Source: Reclinomonas americana ATCC 50394
Lineage: Eukaryota
Direction: 5' to 3'
Assembly: GCA_048213135.1 (NCBI GenBank)
Contig: PS015061.1
Span: 364,628 to 409,470, forward strand
DNA: 44,843 nucleotides
Program-made: the position numbers and the translations under genes
Part shown: piece by piece, positions 1,396-41,301 of the stretch
Layout: each line of letters opens with the position of its first letter
Position numbering within the stretch: position 1 is the first letter of the stretch
Notes under the pieces: generated by a model
Database searches by the model: none
What the model saw: only the letters and a program-made list of their open reading frames with translations
What the model was told of the DNA's origin: nothing

Positions 1396-2315
1396 ATGAG
1401 TCGCGGCGGCGAGGAACGCGCCTCGCTGATCAACTCGGCTCACAACGAGCTATTCGAGCAGTACTCTGGCGACTTTAACGAAACACGCGATCAGCTCGAT
1501 GAGGTGCTCAAGAGCATGCGTTCAATGCCTGCCGTCGGTGCGCTCACCACGTGTAACAAACACGCTGTTAGTTGACAACTCTCACACTCACTCGCCCAAC
1601 GCAGACGATCGACGAAGAGCGCTGCAAAAGATCGACAAGCTCGTCGAAGAGTGCGAGGATCTCGTTGCGTCTCTTTTCTCTCTCGTGTGGATGTTCGCGC
1701 GCGCGCTTCTGATCACCACACCTCGACAGCTGTCAAACATGATGCTGGCGGTGCGGAGTCACCCAGTGACGGAGCGTGGACCAATGGGCCAGCGAGTGGC
1801 CATGCATCGCAAGGAGCTGACTGCGCGATTGGACGAGGCGCAACGGCAGCGATCGTCGCGAGCGGCGTTGATGGGCGAGGGTGTGCGTGGAGGAACGAAT
1901 GGCGGTGGCGATGAGGAGCGTGGCAATGCGCGAGATGTGCGAGTGCGACTGCAGCAGCAGAGACGACTGGTGGAGCAGTCGGGGCAAACGCTCGATGAGA
2001 CGCAGCGTGTCGCGGCGGAGACTGAGGAGATCGGTGCCGGCATTCTCAGTTCACTGAAGCAGCAGGGCGAGCGGATTCGTGCCTCGCGACAAGATGTTGC
2101 GTGCTCTCGTCACTTCCCTCTCTCTCTCTCTCTCTCCCTGGCCTGACCCGTCCGCACAGTTGGACGAGGTCAATGCGGGCATCACGCGTGGCGACCGCCT
2201 GCTGGGCTCCATGTCACGGCGACTGGTGACGAACAAGCTCATCATGGTTCTCGTCATCGTCGGTCTCCTCTTCCTCATCGGCATGATCCTCTACTTCCGC
2301 TTCATGCGAAAGTAG
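1396..2315 (+). CDS. VTI1: Vti1-type Qb-SNARE, 4 exons (1396-1537, 1605-1663, 1730-2095, 2160-2315)
   Basis: GT-AG introns join in frame. N-terminal ELFEQYSGDF; SNARE motif LDETQRVAAETEEIGAGILSSLKQQGERI...LDEVNAGITRGDRLLGSMSRR; C-terminal TM anchor NKLIMVLVIVGLLFLIGMILYFRF. Confidence 0.9.
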
Positions 2316-4752: not shown

Positions 4753-5353
4753 GTCTCTCTCTCTCTCTCTCTCCGTCGTACCGTCGTACGTACGTACGTA
4801 CGTACCGTACCGTACCGTACGTACGTACGTACGTACGTCGTCGTNNNNNNNNNNNNNNNNNNNNNNNNNNNNNNNNNNNNNNNNNNNNNNNNNNNNNNNN
4901 NNNNNNNNNNNNNNNNNNNNNNNNNNNNNNNNNNNNNNNNNNNNNNNNNNNNNNNNNNNNNNNNNNNNNNNNNNNNNNNNNNNNNNNNNNNNNNNNNNNN
5001 NNNNNNNNNNNNNNNNNNNNNNNNNNNNNNNNNNNNNNNNNNNNNNNNNNNNNNNNNNNNNNNNNNNNNNNNNNNNNNNNNNNNNNNNNNNNNNNNNNNN
5101 NNNNNNNNNNNNNNNNNNNNNNNNNNNNNNNNNNNNNNNNNNNNNNNNNNNNNNNNNNNNNNNNNNNNNNNNNNNNNNNNNNNNNNNNNNNNNNNNNNNN
5201 NNNNNNNNNNNNNNNNNNNNNNNNNNNNNNNNNNNNNNNNNACCGTAAACCGTAAACCCGTAAACCGTAAACCCGTAAACCGTAACCGAACCGTAACCGT
5301 ACGTACGTACGTACGTACGTACGGTCGGTCGGTCGTCGTCGTCGTCGTCGTCG

Positions 5354-16500: not shown

Positions 16501-19500
16501 TCCAGTGAGCGCACGCGTTCACGAGTGGACACCAGCTCCAGCTCCACCGTGTCTGCAATACACACGGATGGGTGAGACACCACAGGCGACCGCTACCAAG
16601 ACATCGGTGTGCGTCAACTCACGTCGCTTCTCACGCTCGCTCGACACGTCGCTCTCCAGTGCACCGGCGCGGCTCTTGTAGTGCTCGCACTCGCTCTCTG
16701 CACGTGCCGCCTTGCCACGCTCCGCATGCAAGTCGTTCTCCAGCTACAACACACCACGGAAATTGATGAGACAGAGAGACGAATTATGGCAAAGAGGCAC
16801 GTGCGCGTACCTTGGCCACTGACAGTGAGAACTCGCTGTCGGCCTGCGAACACGAGCATATGCGTTCATCATCAAGATGACAAATCAAACATCGACTCAA
16901 AGAACAAACCTTGACACGAGTGGAGGAAACGTCCTGCAACTGGCGCTGCACGGCTTCACACTCGGCCTTGGACATGCGCAGCTGCGACTGCAGCGACTCA
17001 ATCGACGACATTTTCTCCTGCAGTGATGCATTGCGCTCCAACAACGTCTGGTTGAGTTGGCGGCTGTGCTCTCGCTCCCGAGCCATGTCGGCCTCGTGAT
17101 GCTTCTTAATCGACGCCAACTCAGACTCCACCTGTGTTTCGAATTAGCCCTCCTGCGCATCAACTGGAACACAAGAGTCGCACGTTACCTGCGGAAGCGT
17201 GCTCTGCATCTCCGACAACTTGGCCTGCAGTGTTCCGTGCCGCTGCTGCTCGGCAGTCACCTCCACCTCCAGCGACTTGATGCGCTCGCGAGCGGAAGCC
17301 AGTTCCAGCTCCGAGCAGTCTGTGATAGTACGAAGAGACACTCAGCATCTGTGGATTGCGGAGCAGATTATTGCACGCGCACACGCAACGTCGCAGCTCT
17401 CGCTCCTCCGACAGCTCGCCGGCCAGCATGTCGAGTCGCTGGTAGCACTCCTCCAGCTCGCACACGGCGCGCTGCAGACGCTCACGTTCCACCGCCAGAT
17501 CACTCTCCAACTGCGTGCTGATGGTGGTAAACTCAGAGTACGACTGTCGAGTGCAGAGCACACAACAAATAGTGAGCATCAGGAACTGGGGCGCACGGTG
17601 ATGCTCGTGCAAGTGCAGCAGACCTTGCCACGCTCGGCGAGAACCTCGTCCAGCTTGCGCTGCAGTGCCATGTTCTCGTCCTTGAGACGTTGCAGCTCGG
17701 AGAGGTGGCGCTCGACGAGATTGTCACGCTCACGAATCGTCTGCATGTGCTCCATGACTTGGTTGTTGAGACCGCGAGCACGATCTCGCTCCTCCATGAG
17801 GTCGTGTTCCAGCTGCGTCGCCACTCCCTCCTTGTCGCGCTCCAACTGCAACACAACAGACATGAAAACGTGCACAACGCAAGACTCGATGTGGAGTTCG
17901 CCGCCGACAAACCACTGCGTTGCGCGCCTCCAGCAGCGTCAGCTGGTTCTTCATGTCGCGATTCTGCTGCTCCAAAACGGCCACTCGGCTCTGCAGCTCG
18001 CTCTTCTCCGTCCACATCGACGCCGAGTCTGCGTCGTGCTTGTTGCGCACAGCACGCAGCTCCGAGTTCTCATTCTCCAGCTCGGCATTGCGCGCCTCCA
18101 CACGAGAGCACCGCTCGCGCAGCTGTGCCAGCTCCTGACGCAGGCGCTTGTTCTCTGCCAGCAACTCATCCATTGTCATCTCGGCCTGTTCGCGACGCAA
18201 ATCGGCATTCTCCAGCATGGACTCGAGCTGCACAACGCGACCCTCCAAGTACGCCAGCCGTTGCGTGTCCACCTTCTCCTCCACGTAATTTGGTCGTGGA
18301 TGATTGCAAATCTGGTGCGCTCTCGCTGCATACTCCAGAGTGTTGCGCGTGTCCTTGGCCACGGCCGGGTCCGCCGAGACGCACGTCACCATCAGCTGTG
18401 CAGTGCGCATGGGTGAGACGCACAGAAGCGACAGGCATGCGGTGGGTGGGCGGAGCCGGAACGCAACAGTTCGGCAACTGCCGCCAAACGCGTGATGCAA
18501 AATCGACGTCAGTTTCGAGTCACGGTACGGAACCATGGCCGCCGGTCCCTCCGGCTGCGTGAGGGCCATGATGACGCGCGACAGCGTCAACATGTCCTTG
18601 TTGTCCTTGGTCTGCCCACTGCCCGCCAGATCCACAATGTGGAACTTGGCCTCGACACCGCGTCGTTCTGCACACGTCGCACGACGAGATTGAGTGCACA
18701 CAGAGGGCAAGATTATAGAGTGGAAAAGTGAACGAACCAGCGGTGGATCGCTGCATGACATGCAAGGTGACAATGAGGTGCGACTGTTTCAGTGCACCCT
18801 CGGCGTGTCGTGATCGGCGCGCCTGGTCCTCTTGCATGCGATCGAGAGCATTGAACATGGTCCTGCGTGGGCGAACAAAACAACGCTTCAGAAACTGTCT
18901 GGAGTAGGTTGATCAGTCCATCTGGCGCAACTGCACAGCGTGTGCCGGATTGCGCACTGGTCGCTCGGCGATGCCTTCGACAAAGAAGCCTGACTTGGCG
19001 TCGCCACGAATACGCAGTGGTGGCGGGGGTGTGTTGACGGAGGAGCGGGACTTGGAGACGCCTGCTCCCGAAATGCGACGACTCCGATTCGACGGCGTTC
19101 CCTGCTGCTGCTGTTGCTGCTGCTGCTGCGACTGATGGAGGTTCGACATACTGCCGCCGCGTGGCGGTGTCTCGTGACGACGCGTGGCGGGAGCCGGCGA
19201 GGCGCCTGCAGGACCCAGCGAGAAAGTCGCACTGCGATTCGCACTGAGAGATGGAGCAGACTCGGAGTGCTCCAGCGGCGGTGGCGGCAGCGGCGGTTGC
19301 GGGAGTGAGCCACTGCCACTGTTGCCGCCTGGAGATGCGAGTGAACAACAACAATACACGCACACCAGAAAAAACCAATTCGAGTGTTTTAACCTACCTC
19401 CAATCAGATCCTCGATCCACTCCGGATGCAGCACCAGTACCGACATGGTGACCGAGATGCGCTCAGGTGACTTGTGGAACTTCTGCACTCGCACACAACT

Positions 19501-22427: not shown

Positions 22428-25400
22428 TTACACGTGCTGCTGCTCCTCGCCGCCATACGCCTCCTCGTACTCCTCCTCCAGCAGGGCGTCCGGAGTCAAG
22501 GTGGCTGCGCGAATCTCGTCCAGTGCCTTGGAGGCGGCCATGGCCACGCGTGGTGGGCACGGAGTGGTCGAGCGCATCACCAGGCTCAGCTTGTCCTCCA
22601 GCTGACGCTTGTGCGCGCGCAGCACCTTGCCCTGGTTGCAGTAGGCGTCCTTCAACGCCTGCCACCGTTGCTCCAGCAGGCTGTGCTTCTGCAGCACCTC
22701 GCTCACGAGCTTGGCGTCCAGGTCACGTCGCCTGCCGGCCGAGTCGAGCTCGTTCTTGTAGTAGGCGATCGAGCGCTCGCACTCGTCCAACGTCTGCTCG
22801 CGCGCCTGCAGCATCTCCACCAGCTCGACGTTGATGCTCTCCTCCTCGCGCAGCTTCTCCTCCAGCTGCTGTCGGTGCTCCTCGAACTCTTGAAGCACGT
22901 GGGTCTTGGACTCGTTCAGCGCCGTCACCTCCTGCTGCAGCTGATCGCGCTCGGCCGTCGTCTCGGTGAGATCACGCTCCAGTGCCGCGTGTCTCTCCAT
23001 GCGATCGCGGAGCGTCTCCTGCAGCTGGCGGCAATCGTCGACGGCCGACGCCAGTCGTGACTCCATGGACGCCATCTCCTCGCGCATCGTGTCTTCGCGG
23101 GTGTTCTTCTCGTCTTCCACCTCGCGAATCAGCGTCAACAGCTCCTCAATCTGCTGCGCGCGCACTCGCGTCATCTCCTCGCAGTCCACCAGCTGCTGGT
23201 GCAGGCCAGCCTTGTCCTCGAGCGTCACTCGCAGTTGGCCTTGCACGTCGGCCAGCGACATCTTCGTCAGCTCCAGTTCGTGGTTGCGGCTGGTCAGCAC
23301 GCTCTCCAGGCGCTGCAGCGTGGCCTCGGCCACCTGCAAGTGCGCCGAGACGCGCTCGCCACGGGCCGACAGCTGCTGCAGGTCGTGGTTCTGACGCTCG
23401 GCCGACTGCGCACGCGTCACCCACTGGTCCAACTCGGTACGCAGCTCCGACGTCAGCTCCTTCGACTCGCGCGAGTCTTCGAGCAACGAGTCGCGCTCCA
23501 GGCGCAGGTCCTCCACCTCCAGTTGCAGTGTGGCCACCGTGACGCGCAGGTCGCCGAGACGGCTGCCCATCTTCTCCACCACCGCCTCCAGCTCCTCAAA
23601 GCGATGCTGCTTCTCCTCGGCCTCGGCCTCACGAGCGGCCAGCACGGCGCGCGCGGATGCGACCTGCGCCTCCAACGTGGCGCGCTCGGAGCGCAGCATG
23701 TCGAGGTCGTCGGCCATCGAGTCGAGGGCCATCTCGCGCTCGCCAAGTTGCTCCTCCAGCGCCACGGCACGGGCGACAGCGCGCAGCACGCCACCCTCGA
23801 GCTCGTTCACTGCCGTGCGAATCTGCGCCTCGCGCTCCTCGCTGCCGTGCAGCTGCGCCTCCAGCAGGTGCACACGCTCACGCGACTCCTGTGCAGCGGC
23901 GCGGGTCTTGGCCAGGTCGTGTCGGACGGCCGCCAACTCCGTGGTGTCCTCGCTGAACAGGCGGCCGAGAGCGTTGCGCTGCACGGCGACCGCCGTGGTG
24001 TGCGCCAGTGCCTGAAGCGCATCCTCGGCAGCTTGCTGCGCAGTGCCGGACAGTTGCGACTGCAGGTTGGCCAGCTGCTGTCGCAGCTGCGCCAGCTGAG
24101 CATCACGCTGCGCCAGCAACGAGTTCTTGTTGGCGAGCGCAGACGACAGCGTCTCGTGTTGCTGCTGCTTCGCGGTCAGCGCCTTTTGCGTCTGCTGCAG
24201 CTGCGCCTCCGTGTGTGTCACCTCGGCAGTCATGGACTTGAACATGGCCTCCAGCACGCAGTTGCGCGACAACAGCTCGTTGCGCTCCTCCGTCAGCTGA
24301 GCATTGGCCAGCGCCAGAGCGCGGCAGTGCGCCTGCACCTGCTCGCGGTCACTGACCAGCGCGCGTTTCTCGTTGAGCAGCTTCGAGTTGGCCTCGGCCA
24401 GAGTCGCGCGGGTGGATTCTGTGTTGTGGATCACATGGGTTTTTGAGTGACACAAGCCCATGCAAAAGAGCGTCTTCAAGCTGACGTACCCAAGCGAGTG
24501 CGCTCCTCCGTCAAATCGTCAGTGTGCTTGTTGAGACGGCCGACCTGGTTGGCCAGCTGGTGCACATCGTTGCGCAGATCAAAGTTCTCGCTCAGCAGCG
24601 TCTGCAGTCGGGTCTCGTACATGTCGCGAACCGAGTCCACATCGCCCATCGACAGCTCCAGCGTGGCGAGGCGGCTCTCGACGAATGCCAAGCGCGAACC
24701 GTCGACCTTCTCCTCCCACAGGTTGGGGGAGGCGCCAATCGAGATTTGCTGCGCATGTGCCGCGTACGTCAGCGTCGACAACGTGTCGGCCGCGTTCTCG
24801 GTGGCCGGTGACACACAAAACAGCATCATCTGTGATTTTGAAAGTGAGAAAGCAGAACAAACAAGATAAAGGGCGATTGCAGGGCGACGCAACAGTGCGG
24901 GCATTGGTAAAGGACTTGTACAGCAGCGAGGTGAGCTTGCTGTCGCGGAAGGGAATGGTGGCAGACGACGACGACGCCTCCGACAGCTGCATGAGCACGC
25001 GACCGACAGCGAGCACACTGCGGTTGACAGTCGCCTGCGTGGCGCCCTGGTTGTGCGAGTTGCCGGCCACGTCGACAATGGTGAGGCGCGAAATCGTGCC
25101 CGGCGTCTCCTCCGTCTGGCGCTGATACACAGTCAGCTGAATAATGACGTCGGGCTGGCCGAGGTTGAGTTCCTCGAACGGGTTGCGGCTGCGGCGAGCC
25201 ACCTTGGCGCGCAGTCGCTCCAGACCCTGCGACAGCGTGCCGAGAGCCTGCGTCGCCGACTTGACGGGGCGATCGGTCAGGCCCTCGACAAAGAAGCCGC
25301 CGGCCTGCTGCGAGCCGCGCAGACGCAGTGAGCCACTGCCGCTCGGTGTGCCGGGGGTGCTGCCAAATGTCGGCGTCGTGGCTCCCGACTGTCGGCGAGT

Positions 25401-26348
25401 CGACGACGACGATGAAGCACCCGGGGAGGGTGGGCGACGTGACGACGACGTGGGTGTGCCGGTCGCGGCGGTGCGCGACATGGTCGGCGAGGGCGCCGCA
25501 GGTCCGAGCGACGGCGACGAGGGGGCGCTGCCGGCGGGCGACGATGCCGAGTTGCCAGGCCGGGCCAAAATGTCCTCCAGCGAGTCGGCCACAATGGCCA
25601 CCGCCGTGAGCTTGACCTCGACCGTGGTCGAGGTCGGGTGCCGCTGCTCAAGCGCCTCAAAGAGACGCGAAATGGCGCACGCTGCCACACCCGGCATGTC
25701 ATCGGCCTCGGTCGGCTGCTCACCAAGCGCGTCGCCAAGAAGCGTAAACGACTTGCCAGTGCCAGCGTGACCAAACGAGACCAGCGACGCATCAATGCCA
25801 GCGGCGCAGTCGCGCACCAGCGGCTCCACCGTCTCATTGTGAATGCGCCACGAGGCTGTGTCGGCCGGGAACACGTGATCAAAGCGGAACGAGCGGGCGC
25901 TCGAGCCAATGTTGACGCTGAGCTGCCCGTTGCCGCCCAGTGACAGCGCAGTGCCCGACTTGCACGGTGCAACCTGTGTGTGTGTGTGTTGCAGGTGAGG
26001 GGAAATAAAACGAAAACGGAATATGGAAGGGCAAGTCAGTTGTACCTTGACTGCCACCACCATCTTCTGCTGGTGCGGTTGAGCAGCTGGCGATGATGCG
26101 TGCGTCGCAGAGGCGGTGGGTGTCAGCGCGGCCTTGCTGGGCGTTGGCGACGATGAGGTCTTGCGCAGAGCGCCATACACGGCCGTGGGCGAGTTCATGT
26201 GCCACATGGGTGGCTTGCCGACAAACGACGTCGGTTGTGACGAAGGAGGAGGTGGCGACGAGGACGATATCGACATGGGCGATACGCTGGCGGCGCGACC
26301 GCCGAGCAACGACTGATCGTCGTCCACCAATGAAGGTCCGAGATCCAT
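22428..26348 (-). CDS. Kinesin-like protein 2 (paralog of protein 1), degenerate motor plus coiled coil, 4 exons
   Basis: FRFDHVF, ASLVSFGHAGTGKSFTL, LTIVDVAGNS, IPFRDSKLTSLL, DTLSTLTYAAHA. Coiled-coil exon ~24418-22428. Confidence 0.85.
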
Positions 26349-26636
26349 GTGATGCAAAATAGATGTGATTGGAGGGAGAGAGAGAGTGTGTGTGTATGTG
26401 TTACAAGACCAACAAGCTTGGTGCTCGCTCTCAGGTGGACACACAAAGAATGGGGTGCACTGAAAAATGTGGTTATCTCGTTATCTAGAATCGGCGGTTT
26501 CTTCGTTATCGATCTCCCCCCAACACACACACACACGCCTGCCACCGCCTTTAACGCCTCTCGTGACTGTCATTGTCTACGTTCATGAAAAGTGTGCACA
26601 CACACGCACACACACACATGCACACACTCGTGACAA

Positions 26637-29398
26637 TTACGACGGCACGCGCTTCCTGTCCAAATCCGGCAACGAAATTCCGGCGACAACTTGCAGGTGG
26701 CTCCTGCAAGTAATGTAAATCGATAGCGCCGTTTCTGCAGCGGCGCAAACACAGGCATACCTTCCGGACTCAATGTCCGCAGTCCACACGCGCACGGAGC
26801 CATCGAAACCGCCGGTGACGACGATCACGGCTGCTTGATCCGCCTCTTGTGCAACGGCTAGCGACTGCACTGGTGCGCCGTGATTGTGGCCCACGCAGCA
26901 GTCCTGCTGTGCGCCACTAGCCAGCGACCATGTGCGTAGTGAGCCGTCCCAGCTGCAGGAGACCAGCATATCGTGCCCATCCGCGAATGCAACACCGGTG
27001 ACGCTGCTGGTGTGTCCAGCCAGTTGCCGCAACTGCTGCGCATGCACATCATCGCCGTCGGGCGACAAGGACCACACATGAATAGAGGCGTCTTTGCTGC
27101 TGCTGGCCCACGTGCGACCGTCTGTACTGACGGCAAGTGACAGCACACTGGTCGCGTGCCGATGCACCACCGACACGAATTCTCCGCTGGCCAGCGACCA
27201 CAACCGAACGGTGCCGTCTTGTCCGCCACTGACCACGTGCGACGACCCTGTCACCGCAAGGGCAAGCACAGCGCCCTCGTGACCCTCCATGCAGTGCACG
27301 GCATCTCCAGTGGCCAGCGACCACACACGCACCGTGCCGTCCCAGCCACCACTGAGCACCAACTGCGACTCCGGTGTCACGGCCACGGCCTGCACCTCAC
27401 GTGTATGTCCGCGCAGCACCAGCGCGCACTCGCCCAGCCTCCTTGTCGCCAAAGACCACACACGGAGAGTGTGATCAAAGCTGCCAGTGACGATGAACTG
27501 GCCATCGGGGGACACCGCCACCGCCTCCACCCATCGCGTGTGTCCGTGCAGCTCGGACACGAGCGTGCCAGTCTCCCGTGACCACACGCGCGCCACATGG
27601 TCGCGCCCACCACTGACAATCAGTGCAGCGTCTGGCGTGAGAGTCACGGCACCGACAACCGCCGCATGGCCAACGGTTTCATTGCGCACTTCGTCGCCCT
27701 CGGTCCACTGCCGAATCGTGCAGTCATGACTGGCGCTGAAGACAACCAGTGGTGGCGGCGACGGCGACGCAATTGCGACAGCCGACACGCAACCAGCGTG
27801 TCCCTCGAAGCGACGCACTTGGCGGCCGTCGTCGAGCGACCACATGCGAATGGATTTATCCCAGCCTCCAGAAACCACGTGCCGCGAGTCGGGCGACACG
27901 GCCACGCACCACACAGTCGCCGTGTGACCAACCAGTCGGTGCACCATGTCGCCACTGTCCACACGCCACACGCGGATGGTGTGATCTGCTGCACCGCTCA
28001 CGACCGACTGCGAATCAGGCGCAATGGCCACACATGTCACCGCGTCGGTGTGGCCGATGAACCGGCGCACCACTGCCATCGTTGCTTCTGTATGCACACA
28101 CAGGTACAGCATCTTGTCCATTCCACCGCTGACAACAAGCTGTCGGTCGGCAGCCACACACATCACATGACCGCAGTGATGGCGATGATGGCACACTTCT
28201 GCTCCAGTGGCGAGCGCCCACTTTCGCACCACGCAGTCACGACTGCCACTTATCACATGCTCGCCATCGGCCGTCACCGCCACGGCCAGCAATGCGGCCG
28301 AGTGTCCTTCCAAGCGCGCCTCTAGCGCGCCCGTCATCGCGTTCCACACGCACACCGCCGAGTCTTCGCCGCCACTCACCACACTGTCGGCAGTCAGCGC
28401 CACCGCTGTGACGGCACCCTTGTGAGCGTGCTCGATGCATCGCACCGGCCGTCCACCCACCTCGGACCACACACACACGGAGCCGGCACCGTCGCCACTC
28501 ACCAATGACATGGGCGACGACGCGGTGACGGCCAAGGCTCGCACCTCTTTCGCGCACCTCGCAAAAGGCTCTCGACGCGGCAGTCGCGCACCCGTCACAT
28601 CAGCATCCGTCAGGTCGGCGTCTAGGCACAAGGCCAGACTCAGGTTCACGTCGCGCAAATCAGCACCTCGCAACACCGTGCGATGTAGCACGGCATCTCG
28701 CATATCAGCGCCACACAGTCGAACGCCACTCAAGTCGCGACCGCTGAATGACACGCGCGCGGCTGTCAGAATGGTCGCGGCATTGGCGGCCGCCGTCGTC
28801 GTCACCTCGCTTGTCTCGCGTGACAACAGCACCACTTCCCACAGGCGCTGCTGCAGTGGCGCGGACGCTGACACCATGCTGGCCAGCTGCGTCACCAGTC
28901 GCGGTCGGTCGGTGAGCAGGCGTGCATTCAATGACACTGGGAGCAGCAGTGACTCGTCGTACACACTGCCGATGATGAGGACGGATGATGAGTGAATGGG
29001 AATAATGAATGCACAACGACATCAGCGCGTCACGCAACGAATGCTGCTGTGGCGCACTGCTCACAAGCAGGTGAGGAGTTGTGGCACGAATGCCGACATC
29101 GCTCAACAAGATCGTGTGGCAATCATCTGGCGTCAAATCCTTGCAGAATGGCACATGGATCATTCGGAGAGAGGAGCCTGGGGTGAGCGTGCGGTGTAGT
29201 TCCTCATCCACGTGAGTAAGCAGCTGTCGAAGGGTGCTGCGCGCATGCATGCCGTCGACAGTGACGGTGCACACCGATTGCGACGCGGCATCGGTGATCA
29301 CATCCACATGCACGGAGAACGACTGCGTGGATACAAGTGAGAGGACGTGAGAGTGGCCATGCAAGGATGAAAAGAACCTCGGCTCCGTCGTCGTGCAT
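26637..29398 (-). CDS. Ubiquitin-like domain / pentapeptide repeat / 14x WD40 protein (NACHT-less NLR-like paralog), ~877 aa
   Basis: Exons 29398-29378, 29322-29039 and 28965-26637 join in frame (an in-frame 57-nt intron near 26760-26704 is possible). SFSVHV..VTVDGMHARSTLRQLL..LLSDVGIRATTPHLLV; AAANAATIL..FSGRDLSGVRLCGADMRDA; 14 GH..SG..D..W repeats. Confidence 0.8.
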
Positions 29399-29487: not shown

Positions 29488-32392
29488 TCAGCGCCTGCGC
29501 TTCGTGGAGGACTTGGGGGGCCGATGGTTCGCACGAGGGCGCTGTCTTGCGACCTCGGCTTCGACGCCTGTGTGATCCTGCAACGGGTGCGCGTGGCGTT
29601 CCCGATCGCGTTGCGAGCGCGCAGACGGCGGTGGCGGTCCGGCAGGCGGGGGCCCGGGCATCGTGGCGTGCCTGTGTTGATCGTGACTGTGTGGTCTCGC
29701 GACAGGGGCGGGAGCAGGGCGCTGACTGGCGATCTGATGCAACGTGTCGTGGATCGACGTGCCGGACCAGCTGTGGCTACCAAGAGCGGCGGTGGCGGCG
29801 GCGGCGCGGCTCGGCTGTTGTGAGACGTACGACTGTGGGCGCGCGCGCTCCGGCGACCACGTGTATGCCACCTCGCGATCGGAATGGATGGTGGAGGTGG
29901 CGTACGAGCGCTCCGTCAGCGATCCACCGAGACGCACCTCAGCAGCCTCCGCAGCAGTGCGATGGTAGCGCGCCGACTGACGGCTGCTCGGCAGCGATGA
30001 CGCTACAGCTGCTGTGGGTGCCGCCAAGAGCGGCAGTGGAAGACGCGGCACTTTGGCCAGCGGGTGTCGGGGTGTGTAGCCGCGCTCGCGGTCCAAGTCG
30101 GCAGCCGGCAGTGTGACAAGCGCAAAGGCTGTGGACGACAAACAATGAGACGTGGGCACAAAGAAGGGGGGAGACGATTGTTACGCACGTCGCTCGACGG
30201 CAGTGGTGGGGTCTGTGTGACGCTGGGAGGCTCGAAACGCTTCGCTGGCAGCCTTCAGCTTGGCGCCCGGAAAGTGACCGGCCGAGGGCACACGTGGTTT
30301 GCCGTAGATGGAGGTGTACGAGGCCGCGTGCGAGGCCGCGTACTTGCGATCGGTGGTCGGGCTGCCATAGTCGTCATCGCTCTCGTCGTCGTCGTCGCCG
30401 CCACTGAAGGAATACCCGTCCGAGTTGTCCTCTTGCTCGTCTGTGCACGCAGTGATAGTGAGATCGACTGACGGGGAGGAGGAGGATATAAGGAAGGGGG
30501 TGTACACGCACAGTCGAGCTGCTGACGACGTCCACGGAAGATACGCAAGTCGGCGGCATCGGTGTAGTCGAGGGGGCGGGGTTCAGCGTGCGGGGGTGGG
30601 TCTGGGGGGGCTGGTGGGGCGGCGAGGAGAGAGTTTTGCTCGAGGGTCTATTGAGGAGAAGGGATGTTGAGGGAAAGGGAGTAAGACGAGAAGGAGACGC
30701 GACGAGAGTGAGAAGAGAAGAGAAAGAGGAGGGAAGGAAAAGTATAAAAAGAGACGAATTGGAAGTTTTGAGATATGCCAACAAGCAAGTAAGAAGGCAG
30801 AGAGGGTAGTGAAGGAAAGGATGCAAAGAGAGCATGCAAATGTATGAGAGAGCAGCATCTCGCGATCGATGAAGAGGAAGAGAGGAAGGGCAGCTACGAG
30901 AGATGCAAGGCACGAGACGAGCAATCACGACAAATGCAAGAAGGCGAGTGCATACGGGAGAAAAGAAGATCAACGACGGATGACGGGGGGAGACACGATG
31001 AGCAACTTTGAGAGACGCAAGAAAGCAATAAGAAGGATAAGATGGGAAGATGAAGGATGCAACCTGCAACATTGAGAAATGCACAGGACGAGAAACTGAA
31101 CGGAGAGCGGGAGGAAGGAATGCGAGAGGAAGGAAAGAACACGTTGACAGGAGAGCGAACGAAGGAGAGGAAGCGATGGGAGTGGCGGAACTGACAGCAA
31201 CAATAGATGCACTAGAAGAAGCGAGAACTATGCGACGGACATGCATCCATGGTGCAGAGAGGGTGCCATTAATATTACAAACCGACGACAGTCCAAGCTT
31301 CACCAGGTCCAGGGAAAATGGCACCGATCGACCTGCCTTGCTCTCACCACGCGACGACAATGGCGGACGCACGGACGAGCGAGCTGAAGGCGGGGGCGAG
31401 TGGCCGCGACTGCACGGCGCACTGCGACTGATCGGTCCCGACAAAGACGAACCGCCGGCACCCCTGTTGGCCGTGACGGGTCGAGTCTGTGCCTTTGGTG
31501 GCAGCGTGGCCAGTTCGCGGTTCTTTTGGTTGACCAGTTGTCGATGGCGATCACGAATGACGACCCATGCCGGCTGACCTCCGGCCGCCTGTCGTGCAAT
31601 CTCGGCCCAGCCTGTCAACGGGTGAGCTCACAACACACACACCGGACCCGACAAAGCGATGGAGGAGGCGCAACTGGAGTCGGGATTCTCCCGAGCCTTC
31701 TCCATGAGGCACAGCAGCTCAGGCAAGGGCAGGTGAGTGCGGCGAAGCAGACGACTCATGTCTCCGTTGCTGCTGACGCGATGGCGCGCACCGCCATCGT
31801 GTGAGTCGTCGAACTGGGCGGGGATGCAGTGAGAGCAAAGTCGGGAGCGTATTGGTTGTCACGTAATACGAACCAAATCGCCATCATCGTCGTTGTCGTA
31901 GTCTCCCTCTTCGTCATCTCGTTCCTTTTCATCGTCGTTTTTGGTGACCACGCCCGACGACTGCCACGTGCGATGTGTGAACTCTCCATCGCCGTGCTTG
32001 TACGAGGGAGGAGAGGCGGCCTTGTGTGCCTGCGTGCGTTTGGTGATGGAACCGAGGGCACGCGGTCGATTCGCATCGTTCCGCTCGCGAAACAGTCGGG
32101 CAGCGAACAACACGAGACTCTGTGTGGGGGGTGTGAAAGCACGGCGATTGGTACATAGCAGCAAGCGAAGTGGGGAAGCAGCAGCAGCGCAAAACTGAGT
32201 GACCTCTCGTTGTTTGCGCTCGTAGTCGTCTGCGGACAGCCGTTTACTGACCGCCGCCGCTGGTGGGAACGCAGGAGGTGAAGGCACTGCCAGTGGGGCA
32301 GCAGCAGCAGCGCCCTCGTGAGTCACAGCGGTGGGAGGACGGTCGACGGAGGCGCGGTGGAGACTGAGCCCCGTGTGCCGCCCGTCGCTCAT
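29488..32392 (-). CDS. Hypothetical, largely low-complexity/disordered protein; multi-exon, structure approximate
   Basis: Successive minus-strand frames rich in S/P/A/R/D bounded by GT-AG sites. ATG at 32392, stop at 29488. No domain recognised. Confidence 0.5.
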
Positions 32393-32693
32393 GCCTTTTC
32401 TCTGCCGATTTGTGAAAACACGTGCAATCGCTGCGATTTTCGATTTCCGAGCGAAACGGTCATTTTGCATGCAAATGTGAATTGGCGGCGGCACTGTGCT
32501 GAGTGGGGGTGTGGTGGCGAGGGGGGAATGGATGAGATATAGTCTGGGGTGGCGTGTGTGAATGCATCTCAGAGGCTGTCAAGTGAACGAGCATGCATCG
32601 AGATCGGAAATCGCACAAGATTGGTTGGTTGCGCACCAATGGAGTTCGGATTGCACGGATTGCAATCTACAACAACAACAACAACAACAACAA

Positions 32694-32972
32694 NNNNNNN
32701 NNNNNNNNNNNNNNNNNNNNNNNNNNNNNNNNNNNNNNNNNNNNNNNNNNNNNNNNNNNNNNNNNNNNNNNNNNNNNNNNNNNNNNNNNNNNNNNNNNNN
32801 NNNNNNNNNNNNNNNNNNNNNNNNNNNNNNNNNNNNNNNNNNNNNNNNNNNNNNNNNNNNNNNNNNNNNNNNNNNNNNNNNNNNNNNNNNNNNNNNNNNN
32901 NNNNNNNNNNNNNNNNNNNNNNNNNNNNNNNNNNNNNNNNNNNNNNNNNNNNNNNNNNNNNNNNNNNNNNNN
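32694..32972. other. Assembly gap preceded by an (AAC)n microsatellite
   Basis: Run of N after (aac)n at ~32670-32693. Confidence 0.95.
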
Positions 32973-33099
32973 CTCACGGAAGTTGTCACTGCTTGACTGG
33001 CGCTGGGTGCCGGCTGGCGGTTCTGTATGCAAGCGATTAAGACCGCGACTATTATACGCACATGAAGATCATCCCCGACGACAAGAAACGCTTCGAGCT

Positions 33100-33520
33100 T
33101 CGAATTCCGCTTCGTCTCTTGTTCCAGTTTCGCCGCTGGTAAAGTAACAGTGGTGGTGAGCATGCATCTCACATCCTCATCAGTGACTTCGTAAAGCAGC
33201 TGCATTGTGCGGTGAAGATCGCAGTTCCCGACTTGTTCGGAGCTCCGAGAGCGAACACACACACACACACACGGAACCTGCTGCTGCCTCAAGATTGGTG
33301 TTCGTGTTGATGTTTTGGATATGGTTGAACTTGGTCATCAAGACAGCTGTTGCTTGTTTGTTGGTGAATGAATTGTTGTTGTGCACGGTTGCGACGTCGT
33401 GCACGTGCTTGCGACGTACGCGTACGTCGATTCGAATTTGTCGTACCATAGTCGTGATATTGAGCTTATGAAGTTGTTGAGAACACGAGGCAGCACAGTC
33501 CCATCATGCATGCGCAAGGA
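33100..33520 (-). pseudogene. Possible downstream remnant of an AAA-ATPase_like (PF09820-type) gene
   Basis: Broken frames read LNNFISSISRLW, LMTKFNHIQNINTNTNLEAAAG and TDEDVRCML, which resemble the family's N..NIS....CGFTEEEV segment. Weak, by-eye similarity. Confidence 0.35.
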
Positions 33521-33615
33521 GCGAGGAAAGCGCTTCAACTCTCTCTCAACAACTTCGACGGAATCTGCATTTGTCCTAGGATCCTCCTCTCTTCCACAAA
33601 TCCGTCTCAGATTCA

Positions 33616-34521
33616 ATGAGCAGCAACAGCTTCGCCACCGGCCAAGGCTGGGACCAGGCCGCCGAGACGTTCGCTCGCATAGCCTCGCGTATCTCGGCGC
33701 ACATGGGCCACGCCGCGCTGGAGCGCAGTGGATTCTTTGAGTTGTTGCACGACGAGCATCACCGCGCGCACCTGCTCGATCTGGCGTGCGGCGCGGGCCC
33801 CGTGGCGCTGGAGGTCGCAGAGCGCATTGCTGCGGCCGCGCACACCAAGGCGCACGTCACGGCCGTCGACATTTCTCCCAAGATGATTGAGCTGCTGGAG
33901 AAGCAGGTGGAGGCGCGGCATGTGAACCCGCAGCTGATCACCACCGTCGTGCAGAGCGCACAGGAGCTGCGGCCGTTGTTGGAGGATGGCTCCGTGGACG
34001 CGGCGATCAGTGTGTGGGGACTCATTTTCTTCCCGGATCGCGTCGCCGGCATGCGCGAGGTGCACCGCGTGCTCGCCGCCGACGGCACCGCAGTGATTGT
34101 GTCGTGGGCCTCGAACGACTTGGTGGAGGGTGTGGTCACCGTCATGCACCGCCTGAAGCCGGAGCTGCCGCCCGACGCCATGCCGCCGAGCGTCGCCGCG
34201 GCACTGTCGTTGCGCACTCCCGAGGACATGCTGCGGCTGTTTGCGGAGGCCGGCTTCGAGGCCGACAAGTGCCAGGCCGAGCTGTTCCCCATGCGACTGG
34301 ACGAGTCCGGCCGCTTCCTGCTCAACGTCAAGTCGGCGGAGGAGTTGGCGGCGACGCTGGCGGTGAATCCGGTGTTTGCCGACGCCGCCAAGTTTGCGGG
34401 TATTGAGATGGAGGTGTTTCAGAGGGGCATGATGGAGTGGTTTACAGAGAATGCGCTGGATGAGGAGACGAGCGAGTTTAACTTCAAGGCCACGTCGCTG
34501 GTGGGTGTGGCCCGGAAGTGA
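33616..34521 (+). CDS. Class I SAM-dependent methyltransferase (Methyltransf_11/25, UbiE-like), intronless, 301 aa
   Basis: LLDLACGAG (motif I), VTAVDISPKMI, LEDGSVDAAISVWGLIFFPDRVAGMREVHRVLAADG; uninterrupted ORF. Confidence 0.9.
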   Translation: MSSNSFATGQGWDQAAETFARIASRISAHMGHAALERSGFFELLHDEHHRAHLLDLACGAGPVALEVAERIAAAAHTKAHVTAVDISPKMIELLEKQVEARHVNPQLITTVVQSAQELRPLLEDGSVDAAISVWGLIFFPDRVAGMREVHRVLAADGTAVIVSWASNDLVEGVVTVMHRLKPELPPDAMPPSVAAALSLRTPEDMLRLFAEAGFEADKCQAELFPMRLDESGRFLLNVKSAEELAATLAVNPVFADAAKFAGIEMEVFQRGMMEWFTENALDEETSEFNFKATSLVGVARK

Positions 34522-35573: not shown

Positions 35574-38500
35574 ATGTCGGTGTGTTGGCGTGTTTGTGCA
35601 TTCATTCTCTTATTCCTCGCTTGTTTCCCACTCACCCTTCCGTGCAGTTCTCTGTGCACGTGAGCGCAGCGCATGATTCGTCGCTGTCGGCGGTGGTGGA
35701 GGGCATGTCGGCCATGTCCACTCTCGCCGACTTGCTGCGTGAGGCCACACGCTTGCTGCGCGAGAAGAGTGGAGATGGGGAGATGGAGATTGTGGGAGTG
35801 AAGAAGCCGATGGCATTCAACATCGCCAAGTTCGGGGTGATGGAACTGGCGGACCTTGGCATCAGCTCATCAACTCACCTGGTTGTCCATCTGACACTTG
35901 GCATGGCGCTGCAGTCGAGTGGAGTGAGTGGCAGTGAGAGTGGAAGGTATGTGTTTGTGAATCATCATATATGGCAACATGCAACTCACTCAAGTCCTCA
36001 CGCAGCAACTCGGAGCGAGTTACTCGGTTTGTTCTGCTTGCCGTAATCATCTTCCTCTCTCCTCTGCTTGCTCTTCACTTTCGTGAGAGTGTGCTGACTG
36101 CGTTGCGTGTGCACGCACAGCATGATCAACTCGCAGCGCGTCAACATGGCCTTTGAGGTGGTGGAAGAGGCCGTGCGTTTGCGCTGTCAACGCATACTGG
36201 CGCAGTTCAGTCGTGATCATTCCGACTTTGATGTGCGAGCGTGGGTGCCGAGTTTCACGCCTGCTGGCATGGATGCGGCGGCAGTGAAGGAATGGCGTGA
36301 TCGACATGCTCCACTCCACCCCTCTCGGGTCAAGTTGTTTGACGAGAAGCAGCCGGTGATGTTGGCCTGGCGTGCTGCATTCGACACCGATTCATCGTCT
36401 GACCCTCCGTGTGACGGTTTCGATACGACGGCACTCACCTCCATCATGCTGTTTGGTGGTTACGTTCATGATGACGGTCGCCAGCTGCGTCTGATCGACA
36501 ATGCTGATGAACGGAAGGCCGTGGAGGAGCTACAGTACACCAGGAACAAGCTGAGACACGATGAGTTGCCAGTGACGCATGGCAGTGTGCAGCAGTATCT
36601 CGGTGACGGTGGTGTCTTCCTCTCTATTCTTACTCGACTTCAATTGACGGCTGATGAGCGTGCTCAATTCTCTGCTCGTATCTCCGAGGCACGTCACGCT
36701 CGACACATCGTGGACACATTCGAAGAGCGACTGCATCAGCTGGCTTTGCGTGAGCTCTCATTCTACCAGCACGATGAGAATGTGCGCAAGGACATGCAGA
36801 TGTATGTGCCACTTCTGTGCTCCCGTGAACGTGACGTCTCATCGAGAGACAAGATGACGGATCTGTTGACGGAGGTGGATGAATTCCTCTCCGACGCCAA
36901 CACCACTTGCCGCGTGCTGGTGCTCTTTGGCAACAGTGGAGCCGGCAAGACCACCTCCATGTCGGTGCTTGCTGAGCGAGCGTGGCGACAGTGGCAGACG
37001 AGAGAAAGCAGACGAGTGCCTGTGCGTGTGCCTCTTGGTGCACTGCGCAACGCGGACGAGCGATTGTTGGAGGAGGCACTGGAGCGACTGTCGCCTGAGT
37101 TGGGATTGGAGTCGGATGTCCGGCGATTGAAGGAGGAGCCACTGTTATTGTTGCTTGACGGGTACGATGAGTTGTACCGTGGTGTGAATTTGTTTGTCAA
37201 GAATCAGCTGGATGTGTGTCACGATGTGAAGGTGATTATCACCTGCCGAAGTGATTACGCACTGACGGCGCTGGGTGGGGTGACGCAGTATCGACGGTAC
37301 CTTGCAACAGTGGATGCACGCGGACAGTTGTGTATGCTGCAGTTGATGGAGCGACACATTGCGCCGTTCAACAAGGAGCAGATTGAGGAGTACATTGAGC
37401 GACTGGTGCAAGCAAGTGGTGATGACGGTGAGGTGCGATGGTCGACTGCCGAGGAATACATTCGTGCACTAAAGAGTGTGCGCGGATTGGATGCACTGGT
37501 GTCGAATCCATTCTTGCTGGCAGTAGTGGCGCGTGTGTTGCCGCAGTTGGCGGCCGTTGGTTTGCAGCGACCGACTCGGCGAGATGTGTTTGATCGATTC
37601 ATGCGACTGTGGATTGAGAGGGAGCAGGAGAGGCAGAAGCGTCTTGATGCGGATCGTGTGCCGAGCGAGGAGACGTGTCTGGCATTCTGCGAGGGACTGG
37701 CGCGGTCGATGCATAAGAGAAATGTGGTTCGTGTGTCTGTGACAGAGAGTCAAGCTGGTGATGACGGAGAGGATGATGACTTTGGTGGTGCGCCTCTCGA
37801 TCGTCGGCGAGTTGAAGAGGGACCATTTGACAAGTTTCTCGGTCACAAGAATCAGCACGTGCTAGTGTGCTGCCCGATTGTGCGACGGTATGGGACGGCG
37901 CAGTGGGGATTCGTGCATTTGTCGTTGCTGGAGCATTGTGTGGCACGGCATGTGTTTGCGTGGGAGACGTGGGAGGAGGAGAGGAGATTGACCATGCAAG
38001 ATGTGCAGCAGCATGTGCTGGCTGTGCGATTGCTGAATGATCGACCATCGTTGGTGGAACAGATGGCCGAGGTGGTGCGACGATCACCTGCGTTGCAGGC
38101 GAGACTGTGGGAGGTGATTGAGTTGTCACGGGAGGTGGATGAGGAACGAGTGGTGAGGGCAGCGGCAAATGCAGCAACGGTGCTGTGTGTGGCACAAGTG
38201 TCGTTCAGTGGGCGCGATCTGTCGGGTGTGCGAGTGAGGGGTGCGGATTTGAGAGATGCGGTGATGCACAGGACGGTGTGGAGGGGAGCGGATTTGCGAG
38301 GGGTGAATGTGTGCATGGCTTATGCGAGGGAGGCGGATTTTGGAGATGCGGATGTGACTGGGGTGAAGTGGCCGAGAAAGCCGATTGTGGGGCACGTTGA
38401 TGTCGTAACATGCGTCTCCTTCACTCCCGATGGTCAGCACATCGTAAGTGGGAGTTGGGATAGGACTGTACGGGTGTGGTCTGCGGCGGGTGGAGAAGAA

Positions 38501-41301
38501 GTACGACGCTTTGAGGGACATACTGAAGGGATTTTGTCCGTCGCCGTCACTCCTGATTGCCAGCACATTGTGAGTGGCGGTGAGGACTACACAGTACGGG
38601 TGTGGTCACTGGCGAGTGGTGAAGAAGTGCAACGATTGGAGGGACACACTGGATGGGTGCTGTCTGTTGCCATCACACTCGACGGTCAGCACCTGGTGAG
38701 TGGGAGTGCTGACAAAACTGTACGAGTGTGGTCACTGGCGAGCGGAGAAGAAGCGCGACGGTTGGAAGGGCACGCCGGTATGGTGTGGTCCGTATCTGTC
38801 ACTCCTGATGGACAACGCATTGTAAGTGGAAGTGACGACAAAACTGTACGAGTGTGGTCACTGGCGAGCGGAGAAGAAGTGCGACGGTTTGGGAGACACG
38901 CCGAAGGGGTGTCAGCTGTCGCCGTCACTCCCGACGGTCAGCACATTGTTAGTGGCGGATACGACAAGATAGTGCGAGTGTGGTCTTTGGTATGTGGAGA
39001 GGAAGTGCGACGATTGAAGGGACACACTGATAAGGTGCTATCTGTTGCCGTCACTCCTGATGGGTGTCATATTGTCAGTGGCAGTCGAGACAAGACGGTT
39101 CGTGTGTGGTCGGTGGCAAGTGGTAAAGAAGTGCGTCGGTTTAAGGGACACTCTACAGCGGTGTACTCTGTCGCCGTCTCTCCCAATTGTCTGCATATTG
39201 TGAGTGGCGCTTATGACAAGACCCTGCGAATTTGGTCACTGGCGGGTGGTGACAAAGTGCGATACTTTGAGGGAGAAACTGACGCAGACGTGGTGCAGCT
39301 TGTGGATGAGCGACTAGGCGGTGTGGCATCACGGGTATTGCGACGAAGGATCGTGGAGGCACTGCAGAGTGAACGGCGAGAAAGGAATGCACTGCGAATG
39401 AGTGCTAGTGTTGGGTGAGTGACGGAGGTTCTCTGTTGCCAAGAGGCGCAGGCAATTGACTCACTTCTTCCTTTTCCCTCTCGCGCAGCTGGTTGCAGTC
39501 TCAGTCTCCAGCTCAGCTGACGGAATCTCAACTGGAGGAGTTGTTGGCTGCAATCGACGGTGACACGCTGCCGGAGCTGCTGGAGCGCTTCATGAGGTCG
39601 CAGCCAGCATCAACTCAGCGCTTGTTGATGTTTATTACGGCTTGCAAGGAACTCGCCTTGACCGCGACTCCTATGCTCATTCGAGTGGCAACGGGTGCGT
39701 TGCGAGTAATTCCCGACATAACGATGACTGTAGACGGTGATGTTGAGCAGGCTGCTGTGAAGGAAGATGAGGAAGCCGCATATCGACTGGTGGAGCTAGG
39801 TCAGTGTGTGCGCCGACTGCGACTGCATGAGCTGGCACGAGAGAGGAGACGACGTGCACCCGAGGTGGTGGGTGAGCGGGTGCAGTATGACGAATTGAGC
39901 AAGGAGGAGGAGCAGCGAGTTCGTGCACGGCGTGATGAGTTGGTCGGTGACGGTGATGTGGAACAAGATTTGCAGAGTTTGCAAGCGTTGCGTCTGGTGA
40001 GTATAGGTGCAAGCAGTGGTGCAGATAGCGTAGTTCGTGTACTGTGTAACAAGGGCGCGTGCGAGAGCGACAAGGCTGTAGAATACCGAGTGCATGATGA
40101 GCTTGCTGCCTGGATCGCGAGACGTTTCGCGGATGTCGTGTCGCGTACACAACGGTTGCTGACGCGGCTGGTGTGCGGTGCACTGAGCGGAATCGACTCG
40201 TGGTCTGATTGTGACGGAGTACTATCGGTGTCTCGAGAATCACTCGGCGCGCTGCACTCGATGTGGCGCCGGTTGGGCGCGGACAGTCACATGTGGTCAA
40301 CCGACGTTGTTGGAGTGGATGGGTTGCTCCTGCAATGTAATGCAGTGGAGTGGGTTGGTGAACTGTGCGTGGCCGAGCGGCTTCCCGCACGTGGCTTTGA
40401 TCTGGCTGTCGCCGCGAAACTTGTTGAACGACTGACAGCATGCGCACGTGGCGGATGTCCTCCCTTGTTGTTGTTTGCCATCGAGAAATCTCGCGGGTGG
40501 TTGTTGCAAATGTTACGAAAGTGGGGTGAGTGCAATGCAGCATGGCAGAAGGTGTTGCAACTTGTTCCCGAGGTTGACAGCGATTTGTTGCCGGCGACTG
40601 CGTTGCGCTTTGTGTCGTGGTTTGCTTTTCTGGCGGGCAAACAGCGCGTGCTTGAGCAATGCCACATGGACCAGTCTACGACTCTGGGTGAGAATCACCC
40701 TGACACTCTGACGACGCTGACGCGGCTGGCGAAGCATCTCAACCACCGCGAACACTACGCCGAAGCCGAAGATATAGATCGGCGATGTTGGGAGGTGCGA
40801 CGGCTTGTTCTCGGCAGTGAGCATCCGGACACTCTCATTTCCATGGGCAACTTGGCCTCAGACATGCAGCCAGCTGGTCGATTGGAGGAGGCCATCCAGC
40901 TCGAACGCGAATGCTTCGAGCACCGGCGACGTGCACTCGGCGAGTTGCATCCGGAGACTCTCACCGCGAAGAACAACCTTGCCGTATCTCTTGTGCATCG
41001 TGACGCCGTAGAGTCGTTGGCTGAAGCAGCTTATTTGTTTCGTGACTGCTTGGACGGGAGGCGAGTGGCAATGGGCGACATGCACGAGAGAACACTGGAG
41101 ACAATGTGTGATGCAGCCGCGGCGTGGATGAGGCAGCTGCGATGGGGCGAGGCCGAGGTGCTGCTGGCGGAGTGTATTGACGGTTGTCGGGCATTGTACG
41201 GAGATCAACATCCAGTCACAGTGGAGACAGTAGGCTTGCTGGAGGAATGCCGTCGCCGTCAGCGTGACGAGGCGGAGCGAGCGCTTGCTGCGCGGACGTG
41301 A
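35574..41301 (+). CDS. NLR-like STAND protein: ubiquitin-like / HEPN / NACHT / pentapeptide / 7x WD40 / helical / TPR, ~1803 aa, 4 exons (35574-35579, 35648-35946, 36121-39414, 39489-41301)
   Basis: All three GT-AG introns keep the frame. FDTTALTSIM..EELQYTRNKLRH (RxxxxH at 36542-36559); Walker A GNSGAGKT (36929); Walker B LLLLLDGYDE; KVIITCR; NPFLL; FVHLSLLEH; pentapeptide repeats; 7 WD40; TPRs of the LG..HP.TL..NLA type. Confidence 0.85.
38390..39270 (+). repeat. Seven tandem ~126-bp WD40-coding repeats with high nucleotide identity
   Basis: Recurring gtgtggtcactggcgagcggagaagaag and gtcactcctga blocks at a 42-codon period. Confidence 0.9.

Follow-up and report, generated by a model that had tools for sequence, protein, structure and literature searches.

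Loss of the nucleotide-binding part from STAND proteins has been described in chlorophytes, where the APAF1_C/WD40 proteins have lost the NB-ARC domain and kept a helical linker and a WD40 sensor (Kwantes and Wichard 2022, PMC8891106), and the authors consider for them either a restricted repeat-only role or a possible complex with other proteins (PMC8891106). In plants, the truncated NLR NRG1C, located beside NRG1A/B, antagonises the signalling of its full-length neighbours (10.1101/2021.01.27.428547). The fungal NACHT-WD40 genes het-d and het-e (HNWD) carry regular repeats under concerted evolution (Paoletti et al. 2007, PMC1805685), and in animal lineages HEPN domains of the DZIP3 family are fused to TPR and NACHT domains, Nematostella, oyster and Capsaspora having expanded sets of them (Anantharaman et al. 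2013, PMC3710099). Here we analyse two related genes in a stretch of 44,843 nt of Reclinomonas americana ATCC 50394 (GenBank assembly GCA_048213135.1, contig PS015061.1, positions 364,628 to 409,470), which is referred to as the window and whose own numbering is used throughout. The small gene (26637-29398, minus strand) is the subject of this report, and the large gene (35574-41301, plus strand) encodes a NACHT protein. We suggest, with a probability of about 45%, that the small gene arose long ago from a STAND/NLR-type gene by duplication and loss of domains, that selection has preserved it since, and that its product most likely modulates a pathway of its NLR relatives.

The small gene has the following predicted features:

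29378-29398, minus strand: proposed micro-exon 1, 21 nt, ATG plus 6 codons (MHDDGAE), inferred from the sequence
29323-29377, minus strand: intron 1, 55 nt, GT..AG, with the GT donor at 29377
29065-29322, minus strand: exon 2, the N-terminal domain, starting with SFSVHV, 86 aa if it stops at the first possible donor, and possibly extending as far as 29015
28966-29064, minus strand: intron 2 region between exon 2 and exon 3, borders putative
28758-28931, minus strand: linker, whose homolog in the large gene directly follows the NACHT/winged-helix part (RLL.DRP.LV.Q.A ... LQ.RLWEV..LSRE ... AAANAAT)
28581-28757, minus strand: pentapeptide repeats (PF00805, E=1.3e-12, above the curated cut-off, residues 70-105 of a 145-aa translation; Pentapeptide_4 at 70-128)
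26781-28559, minus strand: 14 diverged WD40 repeats (PF00400, E=1.7e-97)
26637-26780, minus strand: C-terminal tail of 47 aa and the stop (26637-26639), with no space for a TPR part before the downstream kinesin gene

Its 14 WD40 units have a mean pairwise identity of 36%, the hallmark H, D and W residues are each present in 13 of the 14, and no tandem periodicity of these repeats was detected at the DNA level. By their number, the units would be enough for two seven-bladed propellers. Pfam finds no NACHT in the exons of the small gene, and in a tblastn search with seven pieces against the six-frame translation of the window (E≤0.01) the HEPN-like, NACHT, post-WD and TPR pieces of the large gene matched only themselves, and the pieces with the N-terminal exon and the linker-pentapeptide block matched in both genes. 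The predicted product therefore falls under the definitions of a WD40 protein and of a pentapeptide-repeat protein, and it is not an NLR or STAND NTPase, since it is without a central P-loop NTPase domain.

The large gene was modelled with four exons (35574-35579, 35648-35946, 36121-39414 and 39489-41301), all introns being GT-AG, and its product of 1803 aa contains only one stop, at the terminus. Its features are as follows:

35574-35579, plus strand: micro-exon 1 (ATG TCG), followed by an intron (GT...CAG) and then TTC TCT GTG CAC GTG
35648-35946, plus strand: exon 2, the N-terminal domain common to both genes by BLASTP and MAFFT alignment
36122-36895, plus strand: effector-like region of about 258 aa before the NACHT, with the R-x4-H motif RNKLRH at 36542-36559
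36911-37408, plus strand: NACHT NTPase (PF05729, E=5e-9, 36.6 bits with the cut-off at 26.7)
36929-36952 and 37142-37171, plus strand: NACHT motifs seen in the translation, Walker A (GNSGAGKT) and Walker B-like (LLLLLDGYDE), respectively
38018-38377, plus strand: linker and pentapeptide repeats, homologous to 28575-28931 (PF00805, E=1.2e-5)
38384-39238, plus strand: array of 7 WD40 repeats in Pfam, each of exactly 42 aa
39489-41301, plus strand: exon 4, after an in-frame GTGAGT..CAG intron, with C-terminal TPR_10/TPR_12 (TPR_10, E=1e-19)

With a NACHT carrying Walker A and B motifs and with C-terminal pentapeptide, WD40 and TPR repeats, the predicted large protein is classed as an NLR/STAND NTPase. 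For its effector-like region a HEPN identity is plausible, given the nearest Atlas clusters, HEPN_Swt1 (0.79) and HEPN_DZIP3 (0.77), both of which lie under the reliability line of 0.9, and no Pfam HEPN match was found in this region. The WD40 units of the large gene have a mean pairwise identity of 61%, with amino acid variation confined to a few columns, and the array is a tandem repeat in the DNA as well (period 126, 38414-39262, 6.7 copies, 72% matches in Tandem Repeats Finder). In the stretch of about 400 aa between the WD40 array and the TPR part (39490-40689) no Pfam family was found, apart from TPR_2 at E=0.19.

The two genes are homologous over everything that the small one retains. 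Their N-terminal exons (29065-29322, minus strand, and 35648-35944, plus strand) share 31% identity over 81 aa in BLASTP (E=1e-5) and 34% in a MAFFT alignment, with FSVHV, V.GM.A.STL..LL, L.D.GI and HL invariant. The local alignment score of 64 was attained by none of 5000 shuffles (25.8±4.4, maximum 53), and when each exon was searched by tblastn against the six-frame window, the sole match was the other copy (E 1e-4 and 8e-4). The block that follows the NACHT in the large gene, a helical-looking linker and then pentapeptide repeats, is 64% identical over 119 aa, and the shared part as a whole is 48% identical over 423 aa (E=3e-98). These results support the small gene as a true paralog of the nearby NACHT gene. 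The preliminary description of the window, in which the pentapeptide repeats had been left unnamed, had reported a common post-NACHT block, a small gene without HEPN and NACHT, 14 diverged WD40 repeats against 7, and two genes pointing apart at a distance of about 6 kb. On all these points the present analysis agrees with it, through the 64% identity over 119 aa, the Pfam scans together with the tblastn search across the window, the unit identities of 36% versus 61%, and the distance of 6175 bp from one start codon to the other, with the genes diverging, respectively.

The small gene is very probably under purifying selection, as far as its sequence allows this to be judged. Its frame, already described as intact, has no stop in 794 codons where 23.5 would be expected from shuffles (minimum 10 in 2000), and the other five frames contain 13-27. 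Between the small and the large gene dS is 1.7-1.95 and hence saturated; a dS of about 1.8 together with 48% amino acid identity indicates an old duplication and not a recent local truncation. The dN/dS ratio, which is pairwise over both lineages and calculated with a saturated dS, is 0.19 for linker and pentapeptide repeats, 0.28-0.33 for the halves of the WD40 region and 0.49 for the N-terminal exon. Moreover, Tajima relative-rate tests on the module with five outgroups gave 7/8, 11/5, 5/4, 4/4 and 10/6 changes unique to the small and to the large gene, respectively (p 0.13-1.0), showing no acceleration in the small gene. Neutral evolution of the short gene, which had been named beforehand as a point to be checked, is thus not what is seen (dN/dS 0.19-0.49, no rate acceleration), and the open frame, the dN/dS ratios and the relative rates together argue against a long neutral decay.

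The relatives of the module indicate the direction of the change. The nearest relatives of the NACHT region of the large gene combine NACHT, pentapeptide and WD40 Pfam domains at 24-32% identity (30 matches), and 22 of the 30 are from Mortierella, Linnemannia, Gryganskiella, Dissophora, Benniella or Haplosporangium, which we take to belong to the Mortierellomycotina, while one is from Mycoavidus and one from a KSB1 bacterium. The linker motif (AANA.T.L ... FSG.DLS.V), followed by pentapeptides, is found downstream of a NACHT in two proteins, P0202 and P0244, and in one open reading frame (ORF) each at two prokaryotic loci, L002 and L003. The linker-pentapeptide module of the small gene shares 44% identity over 96 aa with P0202 (E=1e-18) and 31% over 109 aa with P0244 (E=2e-11). 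L002 (7157-10588) and L003 (7421-10420), both from one uncultured gammaproteobacterial metagenome-assembled genome, are Pkinase-NACHT-linker-pentapeptide ORFs, which stop right behind the pentapeptide repeats with no WD40 within the ORF. The full module therefore lies downstream of a NACHT in five of the seven module-bearing proteins examined (the large gene product, P0202, P0244 and the L002 and L003 ORFs), and only the small gene product and P0242 are without a NACHT. Since the module stands behind the NACHT in its relatives, it would have been post-NACHT ancestrally, and the small gene would have arisen by domain loss; that it is such a derived domain-loss paralog is, from the sequences compared, very likely.

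Two of the relatives deserve a remark of their own. P0242 is a protein of 1589 aa with an AT-rich-looking composition, in which two copies of the linker-pentapeptide-propeller module were found and, at E≤1e-5, no NACHT. It represents either a second form of the module without a nucleotide-binding oligomerisation domain (NOD) or a partial gene call. The NACHT-WD40 protein of Mycoavidus cysteinexigens ranks amid the proteins of Mortierella-type fungi among the matches of the NACHT region. Mycoavidus is an endosymbiont of Mortierella, and a gene transfer between host and symbiont is possible for this protein.

Broader searches gave mainly pentapeptide proteins. A HMMER search with the 145-aa linker-pentapeptide block returned 26175 matches at E≤0.001, the query including the pentapeptide repeats, which swamped the search, so that the best 150 are dominated by long pentapeptide proteins. 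Seven of these best 150 start at query residue 45 or before, two of them (P0202 and P0242) with linker and WD40 and five being plain pentapeptide proteins. With the first 140 aa of the small gene product, 93 matches were obtained from 2895 candidates (proteins of 426-1357 aa); those listed carry pentapeptide Pfam domains, and no close relative is among them, the best covering 44% of the query. A scan of prokaryote genomes with a three-sequence module alignment gave 18 loci, of which L002 and L003 match the whole module, L009 matches residues 20-116 and the other 15 match the pentapeptide part only. In metagenomes, the two-sequence module alignment found one locus (L001, 10001-10414), which matches query residues 60-118 at 44% identity, in the pentapeptide part only. 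An artefactual M at the first codon opened one of the two patterns used in this search. The same two-sequence alignment had no match in viral contigs.

The exon structure of the small gene is a prediction, in which exon 3 continues without interruption to the stop. The exon-2 frame contains no ATG upstream of residue 25, and the equivalent layout of the large gene, with an intron ending right before FSVHV, speaks for the proposed micro-exon; the position of intron 1 agrees within one codon in the two genes. For intron 2, the candidate donors are at 29064, 29057, 29038, 29033, 29017 and 29014 and the candidate starts of exon 3 at 28965, 28952 and 28936, from which six in-frame GT-AG pairs give predicted proteins of 861-885 aa, among them those of the donors 29038, 29017 and 29014 with 28965 and of the donor 29064 with 28952; the intron between exon 2 and exon 3 would be at most 121 nt long. 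The acceptor for an exon from 28965 is a CAG with a pyrimidine-rich stretch in front of it and, as is found in the other introns, a CTCAT/CTCAC-like element. In the exon-3 frame, residues 12-29 of the linker, 10 of 18 of which are identical to the large gene, lie upstream of the first in-frame ATG (28877). Because these residues are conserved and no earlier ATG exists, exon 3 must be joined to an upstream coding exon. The earlier statement that the N-terminal exon and the post-NACHT block are spliced directly together can accordingly be kept as a model, for which six in-frame pairs are available, and not as an observation, the strongest pair of sites being out of frame.

The N-terminal domain belongs to no family that the searches recognise. 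Neither exon matches a Pfam family at E≤10, the two-sequence profile has no sequence match in the PDB at E≤10 and no homolog at E≤0.01 among longer proteins (8000 candidates scored), and the exon has no match in viral contigs. AlphaFold models of the two exons reached a predicted local distance difference test score (pLDDT) of 43.2 and 44.0, and a strand-strand-helix-strand-strand order, which is compatible with a beta-grasp, appears in one of them only, at this pLDDT of 43-44. Foldseek with the first of these low-confidence models, which is too poor to be given weight, had designed proteins on top and no ubiquitin-like match. In the Atlas, clusters of ubiquitin and Rad60-SLD came at ranks 4 and 6 with 0.88, which is under the 0.9 line. 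The common exon had been called ubiquitin-like at the outset; its homology between the two genes stands (31-34% identity, 0/5000 shuffles), and the label finds no support. A complex prediction of the two exons, run without controls, scored 0.00 and has no bearing on whether they bind. Signalling through amyloid motifs, known from fungal pairs of NLR and effector, was set aside, the common block being no short motif: it has about 80 aa, for which strands and a helix are predicted.

The surroundings of the two paralogs are those of an ordinary eukaryotic region. The window is GC-rich (GC about 0.45-0.64 per 2 kb), and its genes have short GT-AG introns. Between the small and the large gene lie:

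32694-32972, no strand: run of N of 279 bases, an assembly gap or a masked stretch
33580-34521, plus strand: unrelated methyltransferase gene (Methyltransf_11, PF08241, E=5e-17), class I SAM-dependent-like

The run of N makes the real spacing of the paralogs and the content of the gap uncertain, and because of it and the methyltransferase gene the two paralogs have no common promoter. The ORFs 30374-31627, 31859-32578, 32579-33334 and 29488-30180 between the paralogs, all on the minus strand, matched no family in a Pfam scan, and tblastn in the window showed no upstream exon with NACHT homology near the small gene. In the rest of the window there is no further NLR, and ordinary genes are found there (kinesins, a coiled-coil protein, a SNARE). 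Downstream of the small gene, two ORFs on the minus strand match kinesin motors, 24579-26480 (E=6.6e-35) and 17730-18788 (E=3e-17); the first starts about 160 bp past the stop of the small gene, and its motor match is divided into two stretches by Pfam. The long ORF 22428-24518 (minus strand), also downstream, has weak coiled-coil matches. The short spacer between the stop of the small gene and the kinesin gene contains a CA-rich 14-bp tandem repeat (26597-26627). Elsewhere, the ORF 1430-2146 (plus strand) has a V-SNARE C-terminal match exactly at the curated cut-off (E=5.1e-6), and a further run of N of 397 bases occupies 4845-5241.

From these data the following course can be proposed. The parental gene would have had an N-terminal domain, a HEPN-like region, a NACHT, a linker, pentapeptide repeats, WD40 repeats and TPR. 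Of these, the small gene has retained the N-terminal exon with its intron position and the whole post-NACHT module of linker, pentapeptide repeats and WD40 repeats, here 14; effector-like region, NACHT/winged-helix part and TPR tail are gone from it. Since NACHT and effector-like region are missing, the predicted small protein can neither bind or hydrolyse nucleotide, nor oligomerise via a NOD, nor signal as a STAND protein, and it carries no ribonuclease-like effector. It may instead be a non-signalling binder that recognises a partner or ligand with its pentapeptide repeats and its two WD40 propellers, and the N-terminal domain may do an equal job in both proteins, for docking or targeting. 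Our best single guess is that the small protein would compete with its NLR relatives or modulate their pathway, as is the case for truncated NLRs of plants. Taken by itself, the part of this reading that places the small gene in the pathway of its NLR relatives is tentative, at somewhat less than even odds. A more specific version, in which the N-terminal exon of about 85 aa is an undescribed homotypic docking domain and the HEPN-like NACHT receptor forms a two-component immune module of a protist lineage with the NOD-less double-propeller protein, which senses or titrates the ligand to gate the RNase-type receptor, is improbable.

Several points weigh against the modulator reading. What ties the small gene to the pathway of the large one is confined to common ancestry, a common first domain and loose linkage, with an unrelated gene and an assembly gap in between. 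The first domain shows the lowest conservation of all parts (31-34% identity, dN/dS 0.49), without a recognisable family or a confident fold, and the dN/dS ratios describe both lineages and not the small gene by itself. With the strongest donor (GTGAGC, 29064) and the strongest acceptor (28965), 99 nt apart, the frame breaks, so that an intact small protein requires weaker sites; its expression and the junction of exon 2 and exon 3 are predicted. Furthermore, the protein, prokaryote, metagenome and viral-contig searches gave no second case of exactly this architecture.

Among the competing explanations, the main one is that the small gene took up an unrelated role as a pentapeptide/WD40 scaffold and that its position near the large gene is a leftover of a local duplication. 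We regard this as unlikely, though as a serious possibility all the same, because the duplication is an old one (dS 1.7-1.95, 48% identity), the WD40 repeats of the small gene are diverged and stable (36%, no DNA-level repeat) whereas those of the large gene are homogenised and NLR-like (61%, period 126), the neighbours are ordinary (kinesins, SNARE, methyltransferase) with an unrelated gene between the paralogs, and a restricted repeat-only role has been proposed for the NB-ARC-less APAF1_C/WD40 proteins of green algae (PMC8891106). However, the small gene has kept, with its intron position and despite the saturated dS, an N-terminal exon that is otherwise found only heading the NLR, and its best conserved part (64%, dN/dS 0.19) is the post-NACHT linker, a segment known from STAND proteins. 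Both argue against a free scaffold.

An obligate receptor of two genes, a sensor-helper pair in which the small protein is the sensor or decoy that switches the HEPN-like NACHT protein on or off via the common N-terminal domain, is very improbable. It would suit the head-to-head arrangement within about 6 kb, the restriction of the N-terminal domain to these two genes (as judged from the window, the longer proteins and the viral contigs) and the doubled WD40 surface of the small gene. Paired NLRs in plants are two adjacent NLR genes, divergent from a shared intergenic region, one being the sensor and the other the executor. The preliminary description had likened the locus to such pairs, and this comparison fails on geometry: the small gene is not an NLR, the methyltransferase gene and the run of N lie between the paralogs, and the genes are neither adjacent nor under a common promoter. 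In addition, the large gene owns a complete sensor part (pentapeptide repeats, 7 WD40 repeats and TPR), whose regular repeats are of the kind typically seen in NLR sensors that evolve fast and act autonomously.

Just as improbable is a relic or a wrong gene model, in which the N-terminal exon lies outside the product or an unexpressed remnant has its frame open for other reasons, as might be read from the out-of-frame strongest sites of intron 2, a start placed in a micro-exon of 21 nt whose donor, GTTCTT, looks weak, and the lack of an entry for the small protein in the protein collection searched; against it stand 794 open codons versus 23.5 expected stops, a dN/dS below 0.5 in every block although dS is about 1.8, with no rate acceleration, the conserved residues upstream of the first in-frame ATG, which require an upstream coding exon, and the same micro-exon layout in the large gene.

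At present, the small gene is a well-documented domain-loss paralog whose role is proposed from sequence. If the small protein does modulate NLR relatives, regulation by truncated NLRs, so far a matter of plants and animals, would extend to an unrelated microbial eukaryote with a NACHT-pentapeptide-WD40 receptor, and a function would also be assigned to the N-terminal domain. Even without the pathway link, the locus offers a clean natural case of a STAND protein from which NOD and effector have been removed while the sensor and the first domain stay under selection, which is useful for studying the function of a sensor module alone. No published description of the architecture of the small gene was found, the supplementary census tables of fungal and protist NLR repertoires being outside reach, and in the accessible literature on NACHT-lacking proteins the matches listed are mostly mammalian NLRP deletion constructs.

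Compared with the known systems, the NACHT-pentapeptide-WD40 STAND NTPases of Mortierella-type fungi, Mycoavidus and other bacteria are the best relatives of the large gene in its NACHT region (24-32% identity). They differ from the small gene, which has no NACHT, and from the large gene, which adds a HEPN-like region and a TPR tail, and both genes of the window add an N-terminal exon for which no homolog was found. The HEPN-NACHT fusions may be compared with the large gene through its R-x4-H motif and its nearest Atlas clusters (HEPN_Swt1 and HEPN_DZIP3, 0.79/0.77, under the 0.9 line), whereas the large gene has no Pfam HEPN match and the region is absent from the small gene. With HNWD/HET-E the large gene shares very regular 42-aa WD40 units with few variable positions and a tandem structure in the DNA, a pattern that, as seen in one sequence, would fit concerted evolution, while the repeats of the small gene are diverged and without DNA-level periodicity. 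The chlorophyte APAF1_C/WD40 proteins are like the small gene in being STAND-derived, having lost the nucleotide-binding and winged-helix parts and kept linker and WD40 repeats; they belong to the NB-ARC clade and not to NACHT, and the accessible text does not mention pentapeptides, a retained N-terminal domain or a full-length neighbour paralog. NRG1C is likewise a truncated paralog near full-length relatives, but its truncation is N-terminal, whereas in the small gene the N-terminal domain is still there and the effector-like and NOD parts are missing. NOD-less STAND derivatives and truncated neighbours of NLRs are therefore known, and what is unusual here is the shape of the truncation, with the first domain and the sensor kept and the effector and NOD gone, the NACHT-pentapeptide-WD40 family in which it occurred and the GC-rich microbial eukaryote that hosts it.

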